Shown: positions 7,465 through 55,219 of the stretch, piece by piece
Layout: each line of letters begins with the position of its first letter
Numbering within the stretch: the first letter of the stretch is position 1
NCBI GenBank assembly: GCA_964472875.1
Contig: CAYYMD010000008.1
Location: 2,414-66,413 of the forward strand
Source: an uncultured Planctomycetaceae bacterium
GTDB lineage: Bacteria > Planctomycetota > Phycisphaerae > SM23-33
DNA length: 64,000 nt
Reading direction: 5' to 3'
The notes under the pieces: model-generated
What the model was told of the DNA's origin: nothing
What the model saw: only the letters and a program-made list of their open reading frames with translations
Databases searched by the model: none
Translations under genes and position numbers: made by a program

Positions 7465-10245
7465 ATGAAAAAATCAATGTTTTATCTGTTGGTTACATCG
7501 GTGCTGGCGATGTCGCTGGTCTCGCCGGCGGAAGCCCGGAGCGAAAACGAACTGCTGGCGGTGCTGAAGAATCCGGATGCATCCCGCAAACAGAAACAGG
7601 ATGCCTGCCGCGAACTGTCGCGTGTGGCGACTGCCCGGTCGGTTCCCGTACTGGCCGAGCTGCTGGCGGACCCCAAACTGTCGCACATGGCCCGTTATGC
7701 GCTGGAGCCGATTCCCGATGACTCTGTGGATGCCGCACTGCGCGAGGCGCTGGGCAAGGTCGAAGGCGAACCGTTGGTCGGCGTTGTCGGCAGTATCGGT
7801 GTGCGCCGCGACGAAAAGGCAGTCCCGGCCCTGAAGCAGCTGCTTTCGCACGAGAATGCGGTTGTATCCGCCGCAGCCGCCCGCGCGCTGGGCAGTATCG
7901 GCAATACCGACGCGGCGGAGGCCTTGCAATCAGTGCTGGACGACAGTGACCCGTCGTCCAAAAAGTTCAAGGCGGTAAGTGAGGGCATATTCCGCTGCGC
8001 CGAACTGCTCGAGGCCGAAGGCGGCGCGAAAAAAGCCCTCGCGCTGTATGACCGCCTGCGCGAGTTTGACAAAGCTCCGCATCAAATCCGCACCGCCTCG
8101 CTGCGGGGCGCGGTGCTCCTAAGAGGCAATGAGGGCATACCCCTGTTAATGTCCGCCCTGCGTTCCGATGATTACCGTCGGTTCGCTTCGGCCGCGCGTA
8201 TATCGATGGAACTGGACGGCAAAAAAGTTACGCAGGCACTGGCCGGGGAGTTGGGGAAGCTTGGTCAGGATCGTCGGATAGTGGTGCTGCGCGTGATGGG
8301 TCAGCGCGGCGACATCTCCTGCGGCGATGCGATTATGAAGATATTGCGTTCGGACGAGCCGGCGGTCCGCGCGGCGGCGGCCAGGGCGCTGACTCGTCTG
8401 GGTTATGCTCCCGCTATAGCGGAACTGGAGAAATTGGCGGTTGAGGGCGATGGCGAGCTGGCGAATGTTGCCAAGTCATGCCTGGCCGGTTTTCCGAAGC
8501 AGGCCGCAAAAACCGCAATTATGGATATGCTCAAAAGCAAAGATGCCGGCTCCCGTCGCACGGGGGCGGAACTGAGCGCGAGCGTTACGCTCGACTCCGC
8601 CATACCCGTGCTGATGGAAAATGTGCTGGACAAGGATCAGTCCGTCGCGATGGCTTCGCTTCGGGCATTGCGCCAACTCGCCGGGCCGGACCATCTGCCG
8701 GAAATAATCGATCTGCTCGGCCGGATTGAGAGCGATAAAGTGCGGCGCGAGGCGGAGAAGGTTGCGATACGCGTCGGCAAGAAAGCACTGCATGCCAAAA
8801 CCAATCAAATACCGGCTAATGCGGACCTCCGGATAGATAAAGCCGTATACGGGGATTTGCCTGACGGCAAAAAGATGGACGTGACCGGTAAAGTGAAAAA
8901 TATGGTCAAACAGGGCAAATTCGAAATAGCCGCGACAAACGAGTTATTCGGCGACCCGGCCCCGGGCGTCAAAAAGAAGCTGAGTGTGAATTATACTGTC
9001 GAAGGTATTTCCGTCAGCCGGACGGCCGCCGAGGGCGAAACGGTGAGAATCCGTGTCCCGGCACAAGCCCAAAAAGGCGGCGGCATCGATAAGTTGATTG
9101 ATGCGATGGAGAAAGCCACCGGGCCGGACAAGGTGTCATTGTTGCGGGTGATTGCAGGCATCGGCGGCCCGAAGGCACTGGCCGCAGTGCGCAGCGCACT
9201 TGATTCGAAAAACGCCGCGATGCGCGAAGCGGCAACTCGGGCGTTGTTGAGTTGGCAGGACGGTTCGGCAGCGCCGGTTCTTCTTCGGCTTGCCGGTACG
9301 GCCGAGACGCAACGGCGTCGCACGCTGGCCTTGCGCGGCCTGGTGCGAGTGGTCGGCCTCTCGAAACAGCCCGTCCCCGAGAGAGTCGCTCTGCTGAACA
9401 AGGCCCGCGAGTTTGCCGAATCCGCTAAAGACAAACGCCTGTTGCTCAGCGGCTACGGCAATCTGGACCACCCGGCTGCGCTCAAAGCCGTGGTGAGCAT
9501 GCTGGATAACGAGTCAGTGCAGTCCGCGGCCGCGCACGCTGCAGTCAGGATTGCCGAGTCGATAGTTAAAAAACACCCGGACGCCGTGACCGGTGCGATG
9601 AGGCGCGTTATCGGGACGGTTTCGAATCAATCGATAAAAGACAAAGCCGGGGCGTTGCTGAATCAGGCCGAGGAACTCGCGTTAAAGAAAATCGGTTATC
9701 GCCGCGCCGGCGACTGGAAATCGCTTTTCAACGGGAAAGATCTCACCGGCTGGAGCAAGAGCGGCAACGGCGAATTCTACGTGGAAGACGGCCGCCTGGT
9801 CGGTACTCAGACCGACGGCAGGGGGGGCGACCTGTGGACCGGCGGCGAATTCGACGATTTCGAGTTGAAGGTCACGTATCGCGTGGACTGGCCGGCCAAC
9901 ACGGGCATATGGTACCGATGGAAAAACGGGAAAGGATATCAGTTCGATATCCTCAAATACAAAAAGCCCGTCGCTTTCAGCGGGACGCTTTACTGCCCCG
10001 GAAAGCTGTTTCTTTTCCGCAATACAGATGCATCGCTGGAGGACCGCGACGGCTGGAACGAGGCCAGAATACGCGCTGCAGGGTCCGATCTTACACAGTG
10101 GCTCAACGGCGTGTTAATCGGCTCGGCCTCGGATAAGCAGCTGCCTTCGGGCAAAGTCGGCATTCAGGTTCACGGCGGCAATCAGTTCAAGGGCATGAAA
10201 ATTATCATTAAAAGCATTGAAATCCGCCCGCTGAAAGCGCGTTAA
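7465..10245 (+). CDS. Secreted HEAT-repeat (PBS-lyase-like) protein with C-terminal DUF1080 (3-keto-disaccharide hydrolase/LamG-like) domain
   Basis: Signal peptide MKKSMFYLLVTSVLAMSLVSPAEA and multiple HEAT-like repeats (AAARALGSIG, VRAAAARALTRLG). The C-terminus carries the DUF1080 pattern GWSKSGNGEFYVEDGRLVG...FELKVTYRV...GKVGIQVHGGNQFKGMKIIIKSIEIRPL. DUF1080 proteins are commonly found next to Gfo/Idh/MocA oxidoreductases in Planctomycetota and Verrucomicrobiota. Confidence 0.75.
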   Translation: MKKSMFYLLVTSVLAMSLVSPAEARSENELLAVLKNPDASRKQKQDACRELSRVATARSVPVLAELLADPKLSHMARYALEPIPDDSVDAALREALGKVEGEPLVGVVGSIGVRRDEKAVPALKQLLSHENAVVSAAAARALGSIGNTDAAEALQSVLDDSDPSSKKFKAVSEGIFRCAELLEAEGGAKKALALYDRLREFDKAPHQIRTASLRGAVLLRGNEGIPLLMSALRSDDYRRFASAARISMELDGKKVTQALAGELGKLGQDRRIVVLRVMGQRGDISCGDAIMKILRSDEPAVRAAAARALTRLGYAPAIAELEKLAVEGDGELANVAKSCLAGFPKQAAKTAIMDMLKSKDAGSRRTGAELSASVTLDSAIPVLMENVLDKDQSVAMASLRALRQLAGPDHLPEIIDLLGRIESDKVRREAEKVAIRVGKKALHAKTNQIPANADLRIDKAVYGDLPDGKKMDVTGKVKNMVKQGKFEIAATNELFGDPAPGVKKKLSVNYTVEGISVSRTAAEGETVRIRVPAQAQKGGGIDKLIDAMEKATGPDKVSLLRVIAGIGGPKALAAVRSALDSKNAAMREAATRALLSWQDGSAAPVLLRLAGTAETQRRRTLALRGLVRVVGLSKQPVPERVALLNKAREFAESAKDKRLLLSGYGNLDHPAALKAVVSMLDNESVQSAAAHAAVRIAESIVKKHPDAVTGAMRRVIGTVSNQSIKDKAGALLNQAEELALKKIGYRRAGDWKSLFNGKDLTGWSKSGNGEFYVEDGRLVGTQTDGRGGDLWTGGEFDDFELKVTYRVDWPANTGIWYRWKNGKGYQFDILKYKKPVAFSGTLYCPGKLFLFRNTDASLEDRDGWNEARIRAAGSDLTQWLNGVLIGSASDKQLPSGKVGIQVHGGNQFKGMKIIIKSIEIRPLKAR

Positions 10246-17339: not shown

Positions 17340-18929
17340 TTATTTGCCCGGCCGCGACTTTTTATAGTCGTCCGGGTCTATGCCGAGTTTCTTTGTTTTG
17401 TAACGCAGTATTCGCGCGGTGGCGCCGAGTTCGCGTGCGGCGGCGGCCACGTTGCCGAATGTGCGCTTCAGCGCATCGACGATGATGTCGCGCTCGTAGA
17501 GCCCCACGCGTTCCTCGAGCGTGCCGGTGCCTGCGGTGTCGGAGAAATCTGACGTCTGAAGTGTGGGCGGCAGGTTGTGGCCGTGAATCACCCCGTCGGT
17601 GCTCAGCAGCACGGCCCGTTCGATGCAGTTCTCCAGTTCGCGAACGTTGCCCGGCCAGTGGTAAGCCATCATCATGTTGATGGCCGGCGTCGAGATGCGG
17701 CGGACGTCCTTGCCGAGTTTCTCCGCATAGCGCTCGACGAAATAATCCGCCAGCAGTAGAATGTCATCCTTCCGTTGGGTCAGGGTCGGCAGGTAAACAG
17801 GAAACACGTTGACGCGGTAATACAGGTCCTGGCGGAAGTCGCCGTCCGTGACGGCCTGCTCCAGGTCCTTGTTCGTGGCGCAGATTATCCGCACATCCGC
17901 ACGGCGTGCCTCGCTGGAGCCGACCCGCTCGTATTCCTTCTCCTGGATGACGCGCAGCAGTTTGACCTGCGTGGCGGGGGGAAATTCACCGATCTCGTCC
18001 AGGAACAGCGTGCCGCCGTCGGCCTGTTCTATTCGGCCAACGCGGTCTTTTACCGCCCCGGTGAACGCGCCTTCGACATGGCCGAACAGTTCGCTCTCCA
18101 AAAGCGATTCCTGAAGCGCCGCGCAGTTGACCTTTACAAACGGGCCCTTCGCTCGCGGGCTGGCGTAATGGATGGCGTGGGCGACCAGTTCCTTGCCGGT
18201 GCCCGTAGCCCCGCGGATGAGAACCGTGGTCTCCGAGGCCGCCACGCGGTAAATGGACCGGTACACTTCGCGCATGGCGTGTGAGTTACCGATTATGTTC
18301 TCCGGGCGGAAGCGGTCTTCCAGTTCCTCCCGCAGGCGGACGTTCTCGGCCTCCAGCGCTTCGCGCTCGGCGGCCAGTTGGCGACGAACCTCCACGTCGT
18401 TTGCGATCATGCTGGCCACGATGCTCAGTACCCGCAGGTCCTCTTCGAGCGAAACTGACTGGTCGAACACCCTGTCGGCCGAAAGCGCCCCGATTACTTC
18501 CTCCCCGCTGGTTATCGGCACGCAGACGAAACTTATCTCGTTCCGCGCCAGCTCTTTTCGCTTGTGGAGCTTGTCCAGGAACAGCGGCTCCTGAGAAATC
18601 TTCGGCACCACGGCCGGGCTGCCCGTGGCCACCACCCTGCCGGTGATGCCCTCGCCGCTGCGGTAACGGACCGCGCGCAGGTCTTCGTCGGAAAGATTGT
18701 GCGCGACTTCTATGAGCATTTCGTCGGCGCCCGGCTTCAGCAGAGATATCGTTCCCCGTGTCATGCCCAGGCGGTCGTGCAGAACGTCGAGGACCTCAGC
18801 CAGTACCTGACGCTGCCCTCCGCGAGAGGCCAGGATGCGGCTGATGGCGTACAGCGCCTCAAGTTCGGCCAGGTGCTTCTTCCTGCCTGCCTCGGCACGC
18901 CTGAAATCTTTACTCAAGGTATTATCCAT
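17340..18929 (-). CDS. Sigma54-dependent transcriptional activator with N-terminal GAF domain and C-terminal Fis-type HTH (NifA-type architecture; no receiver domain)
   Basis: GAF-like N-domain, then the AAA+ sigma54-interaction domain (Walker [15 protein letters not shown] loop [17 protein letters not shown]) and [26 protein letters not shown]. It is divergent from amtB. Confidence 0.9.
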
Positions 18930-18992
18930 GGCGATATTCCGAAATCAATAACATACTTATACCACATATTTGTAGTATCTCACAATAATATT

Positions 18993-19006
18993 CACAAAAT
19001 TGTAAG
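18993..19006 (+). promoter_or_regulatory. Candidate upstream activator sequence (palindromic CACAAwwTTGTAA) 91 bp upstream of the amtB sigma54 -24 element
   Basis: CACAAAATTGTAAG here versus CACAATATTGTAAT at 22162-22175 (12 of 14 identical). Both have an ACAA..TTGT dyad at the same distance (91 and 92 nt) from the respective -24 GG. Confidence 0.45.
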
Positions 19007-19082
19007 AATCATGCTAATCATCCATGAAGCCCATATTTCATAAATTACTGCTAATGAATGAATTATACAATATGATATTTTT

Positions 19083-19098
19083 TGGCACAGAATGTGCT
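19083..19098 (+). promoter_or_regulatory. Sigma54 (-24/-12) promoter of amtB-glnK-omp
   Basis: TGGCACAGAATGTGCT has the invariant GG (19084-85) and GC (19096-97) with the canonical 10-nt spacing, about 55 bp upstream of the proposed amtB start. Confidence 0.75.
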
Positions 19099-19154
19099 AT
19101 TAACGAATGTCGTGGTCGGGATGGGCCCGGCCGGGATATATGAAAGGATGTGAC

Positions 19155-20540
19155 ATGCGACGAAATACTCCTGAGGAAATTATGCCGCTTACCGGCTCAC
19201 GTAAATATGGGCGAAGATTTATCAAGCCGGCGCTTATGGCGGCCGCGGCCGTGTTGTTTGCAGCCCCGTCCCGCACATGGGCTTCCGAGTCGGCGGCCTC
19301 AGTCACCAGCGGACTGGACACTGTCTGGGTATTGATGGGCGCCTTTCTGGTGTTCTTTATGCAGGCGGGTTTCGGTATGGTCGAGGCCGGGTTTATTCGC
19401 GCTAAAAATGCCTGCAACATTCTGACCAAGAACTTTCTGGACTACTGCACCGCCAGTATAATGTTTTTCCTCGTCGGTTACGGATTCATGTTCGGGATCG
19501 GCAACGGTTTTATAGGCACCTCGGCGTTTGGCCTGTCCGATGCAGGCAGTTGTCCGGATAATCTGCCGCTTTGGGCGTTTTGGCTTTTTCAGGCCGCATT
19601 CTGCGGAGCGGCGGCGACCATTGTGGCCGGGGCCGTGGCCGAGCGCATGAAATTTTCCGCGTATCTGATGTACACGGTAGTGATATCCGCGTTGGTGTAT
19701 CCGATAATCGGCCACTGGGTATGGGGCGGCGGATGGCTTAGCGAGATGGGTTTCGCCGACTTCGCCGGTTCCACGGTGGTGCACGCCACCGGTGGATGGG
19801 CCGGATGTGTCGGTGCGTTACTGTTGGGACCGCGGATAGGCAAATTCAGGCCTGACCGCACAGCAAACGTCATCCCCGCCCACAACATCCCGTTGGCGTC
19901 CATCGGCGTGTTCATTCTGTGGTTCGGATGGTTTGGTTTTAATCCCGCATCGACGCTCAGTGTGGGTGACGGATCACTGATAGGCCTTGTGGCCATCAAT
20001 ACCAATCTCGCCGCTGCTGCCGGTGCCATAAGTGCTATGGTGACTGTGTGGCTGCGATATGGCAAGCCGGACCTGTCGATGACAATGAACGGCGCACTGG
20101 CCGGCCTGGTTGCCATTACAGCCCCGTGCGCGTTCGTGGCGCCGTGGGCGGCGATAATCATCGGACTGGTCGGCGGTGTGATAGTGGTCTTTGGCGTGGG
20201 GCTGCTGGACCGCATCGGCATAGACGACCCGGTCGGTGCGGTTCCTGTCCACGGCATGAACGGCATCTGGGGCACGCTTGCGGTGGGCCTGTTCGGCAGG
20301 GAGGCGCTTGGCCTGGCCGGGGAAGGTCTGCTGTTCGGCGGCGGGCGGCAGTTGGCGGTCCAGGCGCTGGGCACGTTTGTCTCGGCTGGCTTTGCGTTCC
20401 TGGCGATGGGAGCTGTGTTTATGCTGATAAAAGTAACCGTTGGCCTGCGCGTCAGCCGGGAAGAGGAACTGCGAGGTCTGGACATAGGCGAACACGGCAT
20501 GGAGGCCTACGGCGGCTTCCAGATATTCTCGAACGTTTAG
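19155..20540 (+). CDS. amtB: Ammonium transporter (Amt family) with signal peptide
   Basis: Amt signature regions (DFAGSTVVHATGGWAG, GPRIGKF, NGALAGLVAIT, 11 TM helices). The start is set at the ATG at 19155 (RBS AAGGA 7 nt upstream) because the ORF-track start at 19107 overlaps the predicted sigma54 transcription start. Confidence 0.9.
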   Translation: MRRNTPEEIMPLTGSRKYGRRFIKPALMAAAAVLFAAPSRTWASESAASVTSGLDTVWVLMGAFLVFFMQAGFGMVEAGFIRAKNACNILTKNFLDYCTASIMFFLVGYGFMFGIGNGFIGTSAFGLSDAGSCPDNLPLWAFWLFQAAFCGAAATIVAGAVAERMKFSAYLMYTVVISALVYPIIGHWVWGGGWLSEMGFADFAGSTVVHATGGWAGCVGALLLGPRIGKFRPDRTANVIPAHNIPLASIGVFILWFGWFGFNPASTLSVGDGSLIGLVAINTNLAAAAGAISAMVTVWLRYGKPDLSMTMNGALAGLVAITAPCAFVAPWAAIIIGLVGGVIVVFGVGLLDRIGIDDPVGAVPVHGMNGIWGTLAVGLFGREALGLAGEGLLFGGGRQLAVQALGTFVSAGFAFLAMGAVFMLIKVTVGLRVSREEELRGLDIGEHGMEAYGGFQIFSNV

Positions 20541-20583
20541 AACGTTTAACAAGCGTTAAACCCACAATAGAAGGAACAGAACC

Positions 20584-20925
20584 ATGAAACTTATAATCGC
20601 ATATATCCAGCCGGAGAAACTTAACGACGTAAAGCAGGCCCTCTATGCGGCCGAGGTGTACAAGTTATCGGTCACCAACGCCATGGGCTGCGGGCAGCAA
20701 AAGGGATACACCGAGACTTACCGCGGCGTTGAGATGGAAGTGAACCTGCTAAAGAAGGTGCGCCTGGAGATAGCAGTAAACCAGGATTTCGTCCAGCCGA
20801 CGATAGACGCTATAGTCAGCGGCGCCCGCACGGGTAACATAGGCGACGGGAAGATATTCGTCATTCCGCTGGAAAGGTGTTTCCGTATCCGCACCGGCGA
20901 AGACGGAAACGAGGCCATTGGTTAA
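20584..20925 (+). CDS. glnK: Nitrogen regulatory protein P-II
   Basis: 113 aa with [20 protein letters not shown] and the T-loop [12 protein letters not shown] with the conserved Tyr51. It lies immediately downstream of amtB. Confidence 0.95.
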
Positions 20926-20956
20926 CGAGCGAACAGCAATCTAAGGAGAAATTGAA

Positions 20957-21971
20957 AATGAAAAGTACGGACACACAAGCGACACTAAAAATTGCAGGGT
21001 TAGCCCTTATTCTGACGCTGCTGACGCCGATGGTCACCATCATGGCCGAGGAAACGGAAGACGGCGTAAAGACCTGGCTGGAATCCGCACCAGTTGCAGC
21101 TAAAGACACGGATGATTCGAAAATTCCTCTCGATGCCGAGCAAGAGCACGGCTATGAGAAACCGATTCCGCTTACATTCAGCATCGAATACACCCTGGTC
21201 AGCGATTACATATTCCGCGGCATCAACTTCAGCGAATACGCCGGGGAAGGCAGAGAGAAGCCGAATCACCAGATGGCGGCCGGCGTGGAGTATGACACCG
21301 GCGATTTCGGTGCGGTGGGTTTTTCGGCATGGTTCGAGTGGTATGCCGACCAGGAAGTTTTTACGCCCAACGAAAATACCCATCTTCAGGAAGTGGACTA
21401 CACGGTGTACTGGTCGTATGAGATACCGGACACTCCTGTGACAGTCGAACTGGGTTGGATAGCATATACCTTCCCGCCGCTGGCCGGCGACGCCCACGAC
21501 ACAAATGAGGTCTATGCGAAGGTGAGCGTGGACGACGGTTTCATCTTCGGCACCGACGAACCGGTGCTGAATCCGTACGTTTACTACGGGCTGGACGTGG
21601 ACGACGGGCAGCAGGGCTCGTGGCTGGAGTTCGGAGTCAGTCACGATTTCGTCCTGGCCGACTGCAAGGCGATGAAGTCCGCGCCAATCCTGAAGGATAT
21701 CACCGTCACGCCATCGGCTGTACTGGCTGTGGATAACAGATACCTGGACAAGTTCGACGTCCTCGGCGACGGCACCGAGCAGGAGGCCATGCGGCTGGCT
21801 TACATGCAGTACGGCCTGAACGTCAGTTACGATTTGTCTTCCGGCCTGAATATCCCGCCACAGTATGGAGCGATGACGCTGTCGGGCTTTGTGAACTTTA
21901 ACCAGGCGTTCCGCGACGACCTGCTCAACGATGAGATGTGGGGCGGCGTCTCGCTCGGGTATGAATGGTAA
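20957..21971 (+). CDS. Putative outer-membrane beta-barrel (porin-like) protein encoded inside the amtB-glnK operon
   Basis: Signal peptide MKSTDTQATLKIAGLALILTLLTPMVTIMA and alternating hydrophobic/aromatic beta-strand pattern. The C-terminus ends GGVSLGYEW, an aromatic residue typical of OM barrels. RBS AAGGAG upstream, and the gap from glnK is only 31 nt. Confidence 0.5.
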
Positions 21972-22000
21972 TCAAACGAAAGACAGCAGGATCCGCCGTA

Positions 22001-22039
22001 GTCCCGGCGCGTACTTGGCAAAGTAGTACGCGCCGGGAC
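22001..22039 (+). terminator. Long perfect hairpin (15-bp stem, 8-nt loop) downstream of the omp gene, nested in a second imperfect inverted repeat
   Basis: GTCCCGGCGCGTACT-tggcaaag-AGTACGCGCCGGGAC, flanked by GGATCCGCC...GGCGGATTCC. There is no T-tract. It is likely a transcript-end or stabilising structure. Confidence 0.5.
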
Positions 22040-22161
22040 ACGAGGCGGAACCAAGGCGGATTCCGTTCCTGCCGTTTTCAATAGTTAAAATAATATTAGC
22101 CCCAAAAATGAAGCAAATCATCTCTAATCCGACAATAATGTAACTATTATACCTATATAAT

Positions 22162-22175
22162 CACAATATTGTAAT
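22162..22175 (+). promoter_or_regulatory. Second copy of the candidate UAS (CACAATATTGTAAT) 92 bp upstream of the glnA sigma54 -24 element
   Basis: See 18993-19006. ACAATATTGT is a perfect 10-bp palindrome. Confidence 0.45.
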
Positions 22176-22252
22176 ATTATCGTGCACGCAACTTTTGGTA
22201 CGTGTTTTTATAACGCTCTATCATAAAGGCATTTGTAAACTTATAACCTTTC

Positions 22253-22268
22253 TGGCACGGCGTGTGCA
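22253..22268 (+). promoter_or_regulatory. Sigma54 (-24/-12) promoter of glnA
   Basis: TGGCACGGCGTGTGCA has GG (22254-55) and GC (22266-67) at canonical spacing, about 85 bp upstream of the glnA ATG. Confidence 0.75.
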
Positions 22269-22351
22269 ATATTAAATGGAAACAGGCCGGATCTATTGTA
22301 GGCAGGCCGGCGATAGTCTGAGAAATTGAAGATATGCAAAGGAGCATTACA

Positions 22352-23764
22352 ATGACACCAAAGGAATTCTTCGAGTATGCCGAGAAAAACGGCGCAAAAA
22401 TGGTCGACCTGAAATTCGTCGACATGCTGGGCACGTGGCAGCACTGTTCCCATCCCATCGACACGTGGGATGAGGAGACATTCACTGAAGGCATGGGCTT
22501 CGACGGTTCGTCCATTCGCGGTTGGCAGGACATCCACCAGTCCGACATGATCGCCATTCCCGACCCGGACACGGCGCAGATAGACCCGTTCTTCGCCCGT
22601 CCTACCGTCAGCGTTCTGGCCAACATCAAGGACCCCACCAACGGTGAGGATTACTCCCGCGACCCGCGCCATGTAACGCGCCGTGGTGAGCAGTACGTCA
22701 GGGAATCCGGCCTGGCCGACACGGTTTTCATCGGACCCGAGCCGGAGTTCTTCATTTTCGACGAGGTCCGCTATGAACAGAACCAGCACCGCGGATTCTA
22801 CGAGATTGACTCTGTCGAAGGCGCGTGGAACACCGCCCGGTTCGAAGAACCGAATCTCGGCTACAAGCCGTCGTTCAAGGGCGGGTACTTTCCGGTCTGC
22901 CCCACGGACACCTACCACGACCTCCGCGGCGAGATGGTGGAGGAACTTCAAAAGGTGGGCATCGTCATCGAGGCCCACCACCACGAGGTGGCCACGGCCG
23001 GGCAGTCCGAGATCGACATGAAGTTCGAGCCGCTGACGAAGATGGCAGACGCTTTCATGTGGTACAAGTACATCATACGCAACGTCGCTCGTCGCAACGG
23101 CAAGACCGTAACGTTCATGCCCAAGCCGGTCTTCGAAGACAACGGCAGCGGTATGCACACACACCTTTCGCTGTGGAAGGACGGACGGCCGTTGTTCGCC
23201 GGTGACAAGTACGCCGGCCTGAGCGAAATGGCGATACACGCCATAGGCGGAGTGCTCAAGCACGCCCCTGCGATACTGGCCTTCGCCGCGCCGACGACGA
23301 ATTCCTACCGACGCCTGGTTCCGGGCTTCGAGGCGCCGGTGAACTTGGTTTACTCGGCGCGGAACCGTTCTGCGGCGATTCGCATACCGATGTACTCGTC
23401 CAGCCCCAAGGCCAAGCGCATCGAGTTCCGTTGCCCGGATCCGACCGCCAACGGTTACCTGGCGTGGACGGCGATACTGATGGCCGCGGTCGACGGCATC
23501 AACAACAAGATAGACCCGGGCAAACCGCTGGACGTAGACATCTACGAGTTGTCACCGGAAGAACTGGCCAAGTATCCGCACACGCCGGAATCGCTGGCCG
23601 ACGCCATCGATGCGCTCGAGGCCGATTACGAATTCCTCACCGAAGGCGACGTCTTCAGCGAGGACCTTGTCGGTGCGTGGATAAACTGGAAGCGGGAAGA
23701 AGAACTCAAGCCCATGGCGCTTCGCCCGCACCCCCACGAGTTCCACATTTATTACGACAGTTAA
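22352..23764 (+). CDS. glnA: Glutamine synthetase type I
   Basis: GSI motifs throughout (N-terminal beta-grasp [27 protein letters not shown], catalytic [10 protein letters not shown]). The adenylylation-loop Tyr context [11 protein letters not shown] matches the E. coli NLYDLPPEE loop. The ATG at 22352 is preferred (RBS AAAGGAG 7 nt upstream). Confidence 0.95.
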
Positions 23765-23989: not shown

Positions 23990-28535
<4,546 letters not shown>

Positions 28536-28543
<8 letters not shown>

Positions 28544-38787: not shown

Positions 38788-39542
38788 GGCTGTTCTCCGT
38801 CTGAATTTTCACCCGTCGGCTTACCCGCGGGATTGTCCGATTTCAAGTTTCCTTTATATTTTTGCCACAGGTCGTTTCTGCGATTTTTAGTTCGCAGTTC
38901 CGCCTGTTCCTTTCGCCAATTTGCTATGGCCGCGTGATCGCCGCTGAGCAGCACGTCCGGCACGCCCATGCCGCGAAATTCGCGCGGCCGCGTGTACTGC
39001 GGATACTCCAGCAGGCCCTGCATAAACGATTCATCTTCTACCGACCGGGCCTTGCCTGTTGCGCCCGGCAGGAGCCGCACCACCGCGTCGGTCAACGCCA
39101 TTGCGGCCACCTCTCCGCCGGACAGCACGAAGTCGCCGATAGAAATTTCATCATCCGCCAAAGCGGTTCGTATACGCTCGTCGAAGCCCTCGTAATGCCC
39201 GGCCAGCAGTATCAACCGCTCCTTCCCGGCCAGTTCCGTCACAATTTTCTGATTCAGCTTCCGGCCCTGCGGGCTAAGCAGGATAACCTTTCCCGGCTCA
39301 TCGGCCTGCGGCCTTACGTGCCCGACGGCATCGAATACCGGCTGGCACATCAGCACCATTCCGGGTCCGCCGCCGAAGGGGGCATCATCCACCGACCCGT
39401 ACGAATCCTTTGCAAAGTCGCGGATATCGGTCAGGTGGATTTCCAGTATTTCACTTTTGATCGCCCTTCCGACCAGGCCAAGCCGGCGGAAACCGTCGAA
39501 CATGCCCGGAAAGAGCGTCAGGATATCGATGCGTAAACTCAT
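38784..39542 (-). CDS. trmD: tRNA (guanine37-N1)-methyltransferase
   Basis: [27 protein letters not shown], and [13 protein letters not shown], with a short low-complexity C-terminal tail. It overlaps the rplS start by 4 nt. Confidence 0.9.
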
Positions 39543-54921: not shown

Positions 54922-55219
54922 AATTCACTCTGCAGGCCGCTACCTGTTTTCAACCGCGGCCGCTTTACGTAACATATGCGAGATAACACATATAACTTTC
55001 ACTACTATAGTTTACAAGGATTTTACCCTTATAACAAGTTAAACAATTTTGTCTGCGGCAAAGTGTCGAATGATTTTCAAAATTCCCTTAATAGGATGGA
55101 TTGCCACGAATTGCGGCGAAGTTGTATAATTCATGAGGTTGATTCGTGTCATCAGTAACTCAAAATAACGAAGCCATCAATTGCATCGCGTTCTGTAACA
55201 TAATGCGGAGGCGACGGGC

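Follow-up and report, generated by a model that had tools for sequence, protein, structure and literature searches.

A paired palindromic element upstream of sigma-54 promoters of ammonium-assimilation genes, a candidate enhancer of a NifA-like activator in Planctomycetota and related phyla

The 64 kb of DNA from an uncultured planctomycete analysed here, referred to throughout as the window, contain an ammonium transporter gene (amtB), a PII gene and a glutamine synthetase gene (glnA), with a divergently transcribed gene for a GAF-domain sigma-54 activator next to amtB. Two similar 14-mers lie upstream of the sigma-54 promoters of amtB and glnA, which raises the question of whether they are enhancer sites and, if so, which protein reads them. 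The original prediction took them to be sites of the divergently encoded activator, and the amtB copy to be a possible autoregulatory site of the activator gene as well.

Tandem dyads at the amtB and glnA promoters

The 14-mers, CACAAAATTGTAAG at 18993–19006 (amtB) and CACAATATTGTAAT at 22162–22175 (glnA), are found where they had been predicted, are identical at 12 of 14 positions, and both contain ACAA-N2-TTGT. Their distances to the promoters are likewise as predicted, with 91 nt (amtB) and 92 nt (glnA) from the start of the 14-mer to the promoter GG, or 90 and 91 nt when counted to the T of TGGCAC. The motif had been described as CACAAwwTTGTAA, present as a single site per promoter. The dyad is real, but what is conserved in it is a core of ACA-N4-TGT bordered by weak t/a positions, and the flagged copies, although real, are each one half of a tandem pair, since a second dyad lies 5′ of each of them, 30 bp away at amtB (CACATATTTGTAG, 18963–18975) and 31 bp away at glnA (GACAATAATGTAA, 22131–22143), with centre-to-centre distances of the same 30 and 31 bp. 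The distance from the centre of the proximal dyad to the GG is 85 and 86 nt at the two promoters, and the gap between pair and promoter is 79 nt at both. The features of this region are collected in Table 1.

Table 1. Features of the activator–amtB–glnA region, with coordinates in the window; L001 is the closest relative of the window
Feature	Coordinates	Strand	Evidence or remarks
GAF / AAA+ (GAFTGA) / HTH_8 sigma-54 activator, NifA-like	17340..18929	-	Pfam, translation, NCBIfam, structure match
amtB distal dyad ACATATTTGT (with flanks CACATATTTGTAG, 18963-18975)	18964..18973		PWM 18.0, joint top of window
amtB proximal dyad ACAAAATTGT (within flagged 18993-19006)	18994..19003		PWM 16.0; conserved block with L001
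sigma-54 promoter of amtB, TGGCACAGAATGTGCT (19083-19097 = TGGCACAGAATGTGC)	19083..19098	+	-24 GG, -12 GC; conserved in L001
amtB ammonium transporter (ORF listed from 19107)	19155..20540	+	Pfam Ammonium_transp 4.8e-131
PII (glnK-like) signal protein, amtB operon	20584..20925	+	Pfam P-II 4.3e-25
Gcw_chp-family ORF, start uncertain, last gene of amtB unit	20877..21971	+	weak Pfam Gcw_chp match
Hairpin between Gcw_chp ORF and putative glnA enhancer	21989..22052	+	fold energy -55.7 kcal/mol, z = -6.4
glnA distal dyad ACAATAATGT	22132..22141		PWM 16.4; ACAA/TGTA kept in L001
glnA proximal dyad ACAATATTGT (within flagged 22162-22175)	22163..22172		PWM 18.0
sigma-54 promoter of glnA, TGGCACGGCGTGTGCA (22253-22267 = TGGCACGGCGTGTGC)	22253..22268	+	-24/-12; compared with L001
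glnA, glutamine synthetase type I	22334..23764	+	Pfam Gln-synt_C 3.2e-130
Glutamate synthase large subunit	23990..28543	+	

Both promoters, at 19083 and 22253, have the form TGGCAC-N6-TGC. Translation of amtB likely starts at ATG 19155, which in the alignment with L001 follows a conserved ribosome-binding site (GGAAAGGA), and that of glnA likely starts at ATG 22352, behind AGGAG. The Gcw_chp-family ORF is conserved in L001 and in three further loci (L002, L003 and L040). The hairpin behind it, with a 15-bp perfect inner stem and no T-run directly after the main stem, is probably a terminator or insulator, and with so stable a structure between the amtB unit and the control region of glnA, the latter gene is most likely a transcription unit of its own. 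The amtB 5′ leader contains a GC-rich block (GGGATGGnCCCGG, 19118–19135) between the sigma-54 promoter and the ribosome-binding site, which is kept in L001 though its flanks diverge and which matches no Rfam family; no Rfam family was found in the region 18800–22450. A search for a NifH signature found none anywhere in the window.

The control regions are about 70% A+T, and TTGTAA and TACAAT resemble sigma-70 -35 and -10 hexamers, so that the dyads could be chance products of AT-rich intergenic DNA or promoter elements of the neighbouring genes. Several observations contradict this. The sequence CACAAWWTTGTAA has 11 matches in the window at up to two mismatches, compared with 2.9 ± 1.8 in shuffled sequences, none of 100 shuffles reaching 11. 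The original prediction also held up against the frequency of the motif in the 9.4 kb of AT-rich window DNA, where ACA-W4-TGT occurs five times with 0.24 expected, four of the five at the amtB and glnA promoters and one in the other 8.7 kb. A PWM trained on other loci alone, with the window and L001 left out, places the four window dyads within the top five sites of the 64 kb, and exactly two PWM pairs at 25–37 bp spacing occur in the window, at amtB and glnA. A sigma-70 scan of the divergent region returned one match, which overlaps a start codon and does not rise above shuffles, and the glnA pair has no divergent gene to serve. Together with conservation of the dyads across phyla amid diverging flanks, described below, these results effectively refute an origin by chance or as sigma-70 hexamers, to which we assign a negligible probability.

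Among the remaining PWM sites of the window is an orphan dyad (AACAATTTTGTC, 55043–55052, PWM 18.0) in the divergent intergenic region 54922–55219, which is unpaired, has no sigma-54 promoter nearby and is therefore compatible with chance. Weak matches at 39239, 46882, 57875 and 59972 have low PWM scores and were discarded.

The paired dyad in other genomes

A search with the activator protein gave 80 loci encoding relatives 50–89% identical to it, from Planctomycetota (Phycisphaerae, Sedimentisphaerales and others), Kiritimatiellia (Pontiella), Lentisphaerota and Verrucomicrobiota. Family members 53–62% identical are also found in two contigs labelled as Acidobacteriota (L019) and Thermodesulfobacteriota (L078) metagenome-assembled genomes, reflecting either mis-binning or a family that reaches beyond PVC.

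When the sigma-54 promoters of these loci are aligned on the -24 element, the amtB, glnA and gltB promoters beside family activator genes have two ACA-N4-TGT dyads about 30 bp apart. Over the 300 nt that precede each of 83 activator genes, x = 4 is the one spacing of ACA-Nx-TGT to show enrichment (77 observed, 4.8 expected, 16-fold, z = 31.8), and no spacing of the reverse arrangement TGT-Nx-ACA is enriched, the N10 of NifA sites occurring 6 times with 4.1 expected. This bears out the predicted difference from the NifA upstream activating sequence (UAS), TGT-N10-ACA, which is absent from both window control regions and not enriched across the family. In 1.15 Mb searched for pairs at 25–37 bp, 38 of 39 pairs have a spacing of 29–31 bp, and 21 pairs precede a sigma-54 promoter of amtB, glnA, gltB or another ORF at 82–177 nt, counted from the centre of the proximal dyad to the GG. 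The symmetrised dyad consensus is tACAwwwwTGTa; the outer C and the inner A/T of ACAA/TTGT are conserved in close relatives only. In alignments of the window with L001, whose proteins are 85–93% identical to those of the window, the longest stretches of unbroken conservation outside coding sequence are the dyads, flanks included, and the -24/-12 elements; the amtB distal dyad forms one such block, and the longest of all, TATAATCACAtTATTGTAATATT, contains the glnA proximal dyad. Conservation of the dyads spans phyla while the flanking sequences diverge.

Because these loci were found via the activator gene, linkage of the pairs to that gene is partly circular, and metagenome contigs were therefore scanned by DNA alone, with a pair of W-spacer dyads and a gap of 75–105 nt to TGGCAC as the only pattern, giving at least 124 matches in at least 120 stretches. 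The -12 element was no part of the pattern, but TGC is present at the exact -12 position in 93 of the 124 matches listed, with about two expected, and TTGC in 80 of the 124. The genes downstream, among the matches listed, encode AmtB (27), Gcw_chp-family proteins (14), PII (11), GlnD (10) and glutamine synthetase (GS) types I and III (9), with single cases of glutamate dehydrogenase (GDH) and a DctP-type binding protein. An activator-family gene is on the same contig in 21 of the 89 loci listed and in 8 of the 17 loci of at least 8 kb, most of the contigs being short, and lies no more than 300 nt from the pair in 12 of the loci listed. If genomes carry one or two copies of the gene, we estimate this linkage at more than 50-fold above random. 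The pair is a conserved element, and it is found in association with sigma-54 promoters, nitrogen genes and the activator gene.

The second most common downstream gene among the matches listed encodes a secreted Gcw_chp-family protein (PF09694) of about 260 residues, which follows a pair and sigma-54 promoter in L084, L123 and 12 other metagenome loci. In L003 and L040 the Gcw_chp gene takes the place that amtB has in the window, upstream of the activator gene and on the other strand. A role as an outer-membrane channel is possible for this protein, with ammonium or some other nitrogen compound as the substrate.

The original prediction also included a conserved phasing of the motif relative to the -24 element. 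Helical phase is indeed conserved, but one fixed distance is not: among the matches listed, the gaps between pair and promoter fall into classes of 75–81, 87–95 and 99–104 nt, with almost nothing between them even though 75–105 nt was searched uniformly, and the shortest class includes both window promoters. A period of about 12 bp fits best (R about 0.65, matches listed) and exceeds the 10.5 bp of B-DNA. The division into discrete classes roughly 12 bp apart points to a face-of-helix rule with no single fixed distance. In the activator-derived loci the helical periodicity is weakly significant and depends on the period chosen, and the p-values are only indicative because the sequences are not phylogenetically independent. 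The IHF consensus occurs four times between the pair and the promoter in 105 sequences, with 0.9 expected, too few for a conserved site, and no other conserved block was found there in the same sequences, which contain alternating AT-rich stretches only. Apart from the pair, no element is conserved in the -80 to -150 zone.

The activator, its candidate sites and its own gene

The activator is a 529-residue protein of GAF, Sigma54_activat (Pfam 2.5e-73) and HTH_8 (1.9e-07) domains with an intact GAFTGA motif, and a tblastn search of the window with it found no second copy. It scores 527.3 bits against the NCBIfam nifA equivalog TIGR01817, marginally below the cut-off of 528.85, the aligned stretch corresponding to profile positions 3–438 of 534, which cover the GAF and AAA+ domains and leave the C-terminal DNA-binding part outside. 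Its score against the ntrC equivalog TIGR01818 is 335.6 bits (cut-off 558.6), aligned from residue 193 only. Residues 21–517, and with them essentially the full length, match the solved NifA 9qq6_C (E 2.5e-112), and for the GAF domain the match to Aquifex Nlh1 (4g3k, E 1.3e-31) is stronger than that to the stand-alone NifA GAF entry 8jrc (E 1.8e-16).

The recognition helix of the solved NifA, ...MTPRQIAYRIQTL, has a scaffold in common with the window activator, and the intervening residues differ. The same scaffold with other residues fits a related fold that reads a differently arranged TGT/ACA site. Both major clades of the activator family have the pattern T-x-R-[IM]-[LVI]-x-Y; the helix varies too little within the family for covariation with the site to be informative. 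L019 encodes an unrelated activator that has another recognition helix and lacks dyads.

The proposal that the pairs form an enhancer for the GAF-domain activator gains strength from their position, next to activator orthologues in several phyla and at sigma-54 promoters of nitrogen genes, and the pairs at amtB and glnA are very probably the enhancers of this NifA-like protein. We infer, with good support from co-localisation, that the activator is presumably the protein that binds the dyads, since no other regulator gene recurs near the pairs. The element could instead be real and have another binder, either a different sigma-54 activator whose gene lies elsewhere, or a global nitrogen repressor or co-regulator with the activator gene among its targets. 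Site and protein are linked by co-localisation only, about 50 of the 83 family activator genes have no strict pair nearby, and 68 of the 89 scan loci listed have no activator gene on the contig, though mostly on short contigs; moreover, some pairs are in the activator 5′ leader or over the transcription start, a position typical of repressors. We nevertheless regard another binder as improbable. In addition to the lack of any other regulator gene recurring beside the pairs, matches to activators of this type below the family level are rare, and the linkage to the activator gene has the estimated excess given above. Sigma-54 promoters require an activator, and no second conserved element in the upstream zone competes with the pair for this role. 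The three-turn spacing and the helical classes of distance to the promoter are also what an activator needs, and a repressor does not.

A further point counts against the activator as binder or, more generally, against the proposed reading. Known sites of the Fis-type HTH dimers of such activators are 16–17 bp long, and a compact 10-bp dyad is therefore unusual.

The amtB pair is 35–74 bp upstream of the activator start codon, its distal dyad being 35 bp from the ATG on the opposite strand, and a sigma-70 scan found no convincing promoter of the window activator gene. From this position, the activator gene is very probably autoregulated, as had been suggested for the amtB copy. The suggestion is strengthened by other loci, as pairs are present 0–100 bp upstream of about 30 of the 83 activator genes, about 13 of which have no divergent sigma-54 promoter; in L068, for example, the pair is in a 97-bp gap ahead of the activator gene and behind a gene on the same strand. 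In two loci the pair follows a sigma-54 promoter of the activator gene itself, at 7872 with the pair at 7926–7965 and the ATG at 7978 (L011), and at 7865 with the pair at 7890–7928 and the ATG at 7960 (L038). In L007, L021, L027, L028, L039 and L072, too, the pair is 3′ of a sigma-54 promoter that belongs to the activator gene, and falls within the 5′ leader or on the start of transcription. Several of the loci with this arrangement encode nif-linked or Pontiella paralogues. Enhancers are not usually placed in this way. The arrangement suggests either negative feedback or a cascade in which one paralogue controls another, and it suits repression better than activation.

These same loci raise the possibility that the pair is primarily an operator for negative autoregulation of the activator, with its position at amtB a by-product of the divergent arrangement. 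The roughly 30 loci with a pair close to the activator start, the 13 or so among them lacking a divergent sigma-54 promoter, and the pairs at or after the transcription start in L011 and L038 speak for it. However, an operator of this kind cannot account for pairs at the glnA, gltB, glnD, GS III, PII and Gcw_chp promoters away from the activator gene, and leaves the phasing to the -24 element unexplained. We consider it quite unlikely as the primary function, less likely than another binder, and as a second function it is compatible with enhancer action of the activator at amtB and glnA, and so is no true alternative to it.

In other genomes the activator has paralogues that are nif-linked. 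The Pontiella loci L034, L038, L059 and L072 each encode two same-strand activator paralogues separated by about 2.5 kb, which represent the two major clades and have recognition helices of the TPRMVRYK and TTQRIINY types; the pair is before the second gene in L034 and L059 and before the first in L038 and L072. At the sigma-54 nifH promoters beside nif-linked activator paralogues no ACA-N4-TGT pair was found. These nifH promoters have an asymmetric box, (T)GACAAnTATTTCC, in two direct copies 92–121 bp apart (L022 and L025, both 9552 and 9673; L027, 9698 and 9818; L028, 9605 and 9697; L035, 9579 and 9699), and L022 (7940) and L025 (7925) have one more copy, on the other strand and directly ahead of the activator gene. 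This box may be read by the nif-specific paralogue or by some other regulator. Since these nifH promoters have a different box, not every member of the family need read the ACA-N4-TGT dyad.

Relation to NtrC, NifA and Nlh1

The reading that we favour, to which we give a probability of about 0.75 from sequence comparison, is that of a tandem UAS with activator dimers on in-phase dyads, assembly controlled by the GAF domain, looping to sigma-54 and autoregulation. The flagged 14-mers would be the promoter-proximal halves of two tandem UASs, each made of two tACA-N4-TGTa dyads 30–31 bp, or three helical turns, apart, and located about 85 nt 5′ of the -24 element, where they would serve amtB-glnK-(Gcw_chp) and glnA. 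Dimers of the divergently encoded GAF/AAA+/HTH_8 activator would occupy the two dyads on one face of the helix. Under nitrogen limitation, probably signalled by 2-oxoglutarate and/or the co-encoded PII protein as the analogy with NifA and Nlh1 suggests, the GAF domain would free the AAA+ domains; the activator would then form a ring, contact the promoter-bound sigma-54 holoenzyme by looping the AT-rich DNA between, and use ATP to drive open-complex formation. The amtB pair would very probably also autoregulate the activator gene. A one-component NifA-like protein with its own DNA site would thus fill the role of NtrC as master activator of ammonium assimilation.

In enteric bacteria the NtrC (NRI) enhancers of glnAp2 and glnK-amtB consist of two dyads about three helical turns apart. 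The sigma-54 promoters served by these dyads, among them those of glnA, amtB-glnK and further genes of ammonium assimilation, are located about 100–140 bp downstream, and NtrC also binds near its own gene. The system described here has in common with NtrC the paired dyads, the sigma-54 promoters and the ammonium-assimilation genes, with a similar regulon in that amtB, PII, glnA, GS III, glnD, gltB and gdh follow the pair and a sigma-54 promoter, a likeness that we take as functional analogy only. In contrast to NtrC, the window activator has a GAF domain at its N-terminus and no phospho-receiver domain, no histidine kinase gene was noted next to it, and the site is ACA-N4-TGT; the best matches to TGCACC-N5-GGTGCA in the control regions have 4–5 mismatches of 12.

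The protein is similar to NifA. It has the same GAF, AAA+ and HTH architecture, full-length homology to the solved A. vinelandii-type NifA and the helix scaffold T-x-R-x-[IVL]-x-Y, and the half-site triplets of the dyads are again TGT/ACA. The system differs from that of NifA in the residues carried by the helix (RQIAY in NifA, RILRY in the window activator), in half-sites that are in the opposite order and much closer (ACA-N4-TGT), in a TIGR01817 score just under the cut-off, and in its adjacent targets, amtB-glnK and glnA, which are assimilation and not nif genes. NifA binds its UAS and loops to the sigma-54 RNA polymerase (PMC9866876). The nearest published idea is that of NifA-like homolog 1 (Nlh1) of Aquifex aeolicus, a non-diazotroph, in which this GAF/AAA+/HTH one-component sigma-54 activator is 'speculated' to control nitrogen assimilation rather than fixation (PMC9866876). 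The Nlh1 GAF domain matches that of the window protein well, and the comparison concerns the GAF domain alone; Nlh1 is from a different phylum, and no DNA site or regulon for it was found reported in the literature searched. That literature, in which subscription journals were thinly covered, also yielded no earlier account of the motif or its regulator, and one may exist. Elements of this kind are well known; what appears to be new is the site, its geometry and the use of a NifA-like protein in the role of NtrC.

Taken jointly with the paralogues, the data offer a more tentative reading, which we hold at slightly less than even odds, that the nif-specific activators of these phyla are paralogues of the assimilation activator, and that pairs in activator leaders, some of them sigma-54-dependent, build feedback or cascade circuits. 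If this is true, nif-specific NifA-type regulators may derive from an older Nlh1-type assimilation regulator, and not the reverse.

Planctomycetota, Verrucomicrobiota, Lentisphaerota and Kiritimatiellia abound in the environment, with diazotrophs among them, and to our knowledge nitrogen regulation in these groups is essentially uncharacterised. The pair would provide them with a testable triplet of regulator, site and regulon, consisting of a 10-bp dyad, a strict pair geometry and a promoter spacing rule, together with a target list of amtB, PII, glnD, GS I/III, gltB, gdh and an uncharacterised secreted Gcw_chp-family protein, and with it an annotation rule for nitrogen regulons in metagenome-assembled genomes. 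It is also a predicted natural case of a NifA-like protein with a differently arranged TGT/ACA site, which would be useful for understanding and engineering DNA specificity. Specialists would not be astonished by such a system, yet with it nitrogen control in these phyla becomes directly testable.
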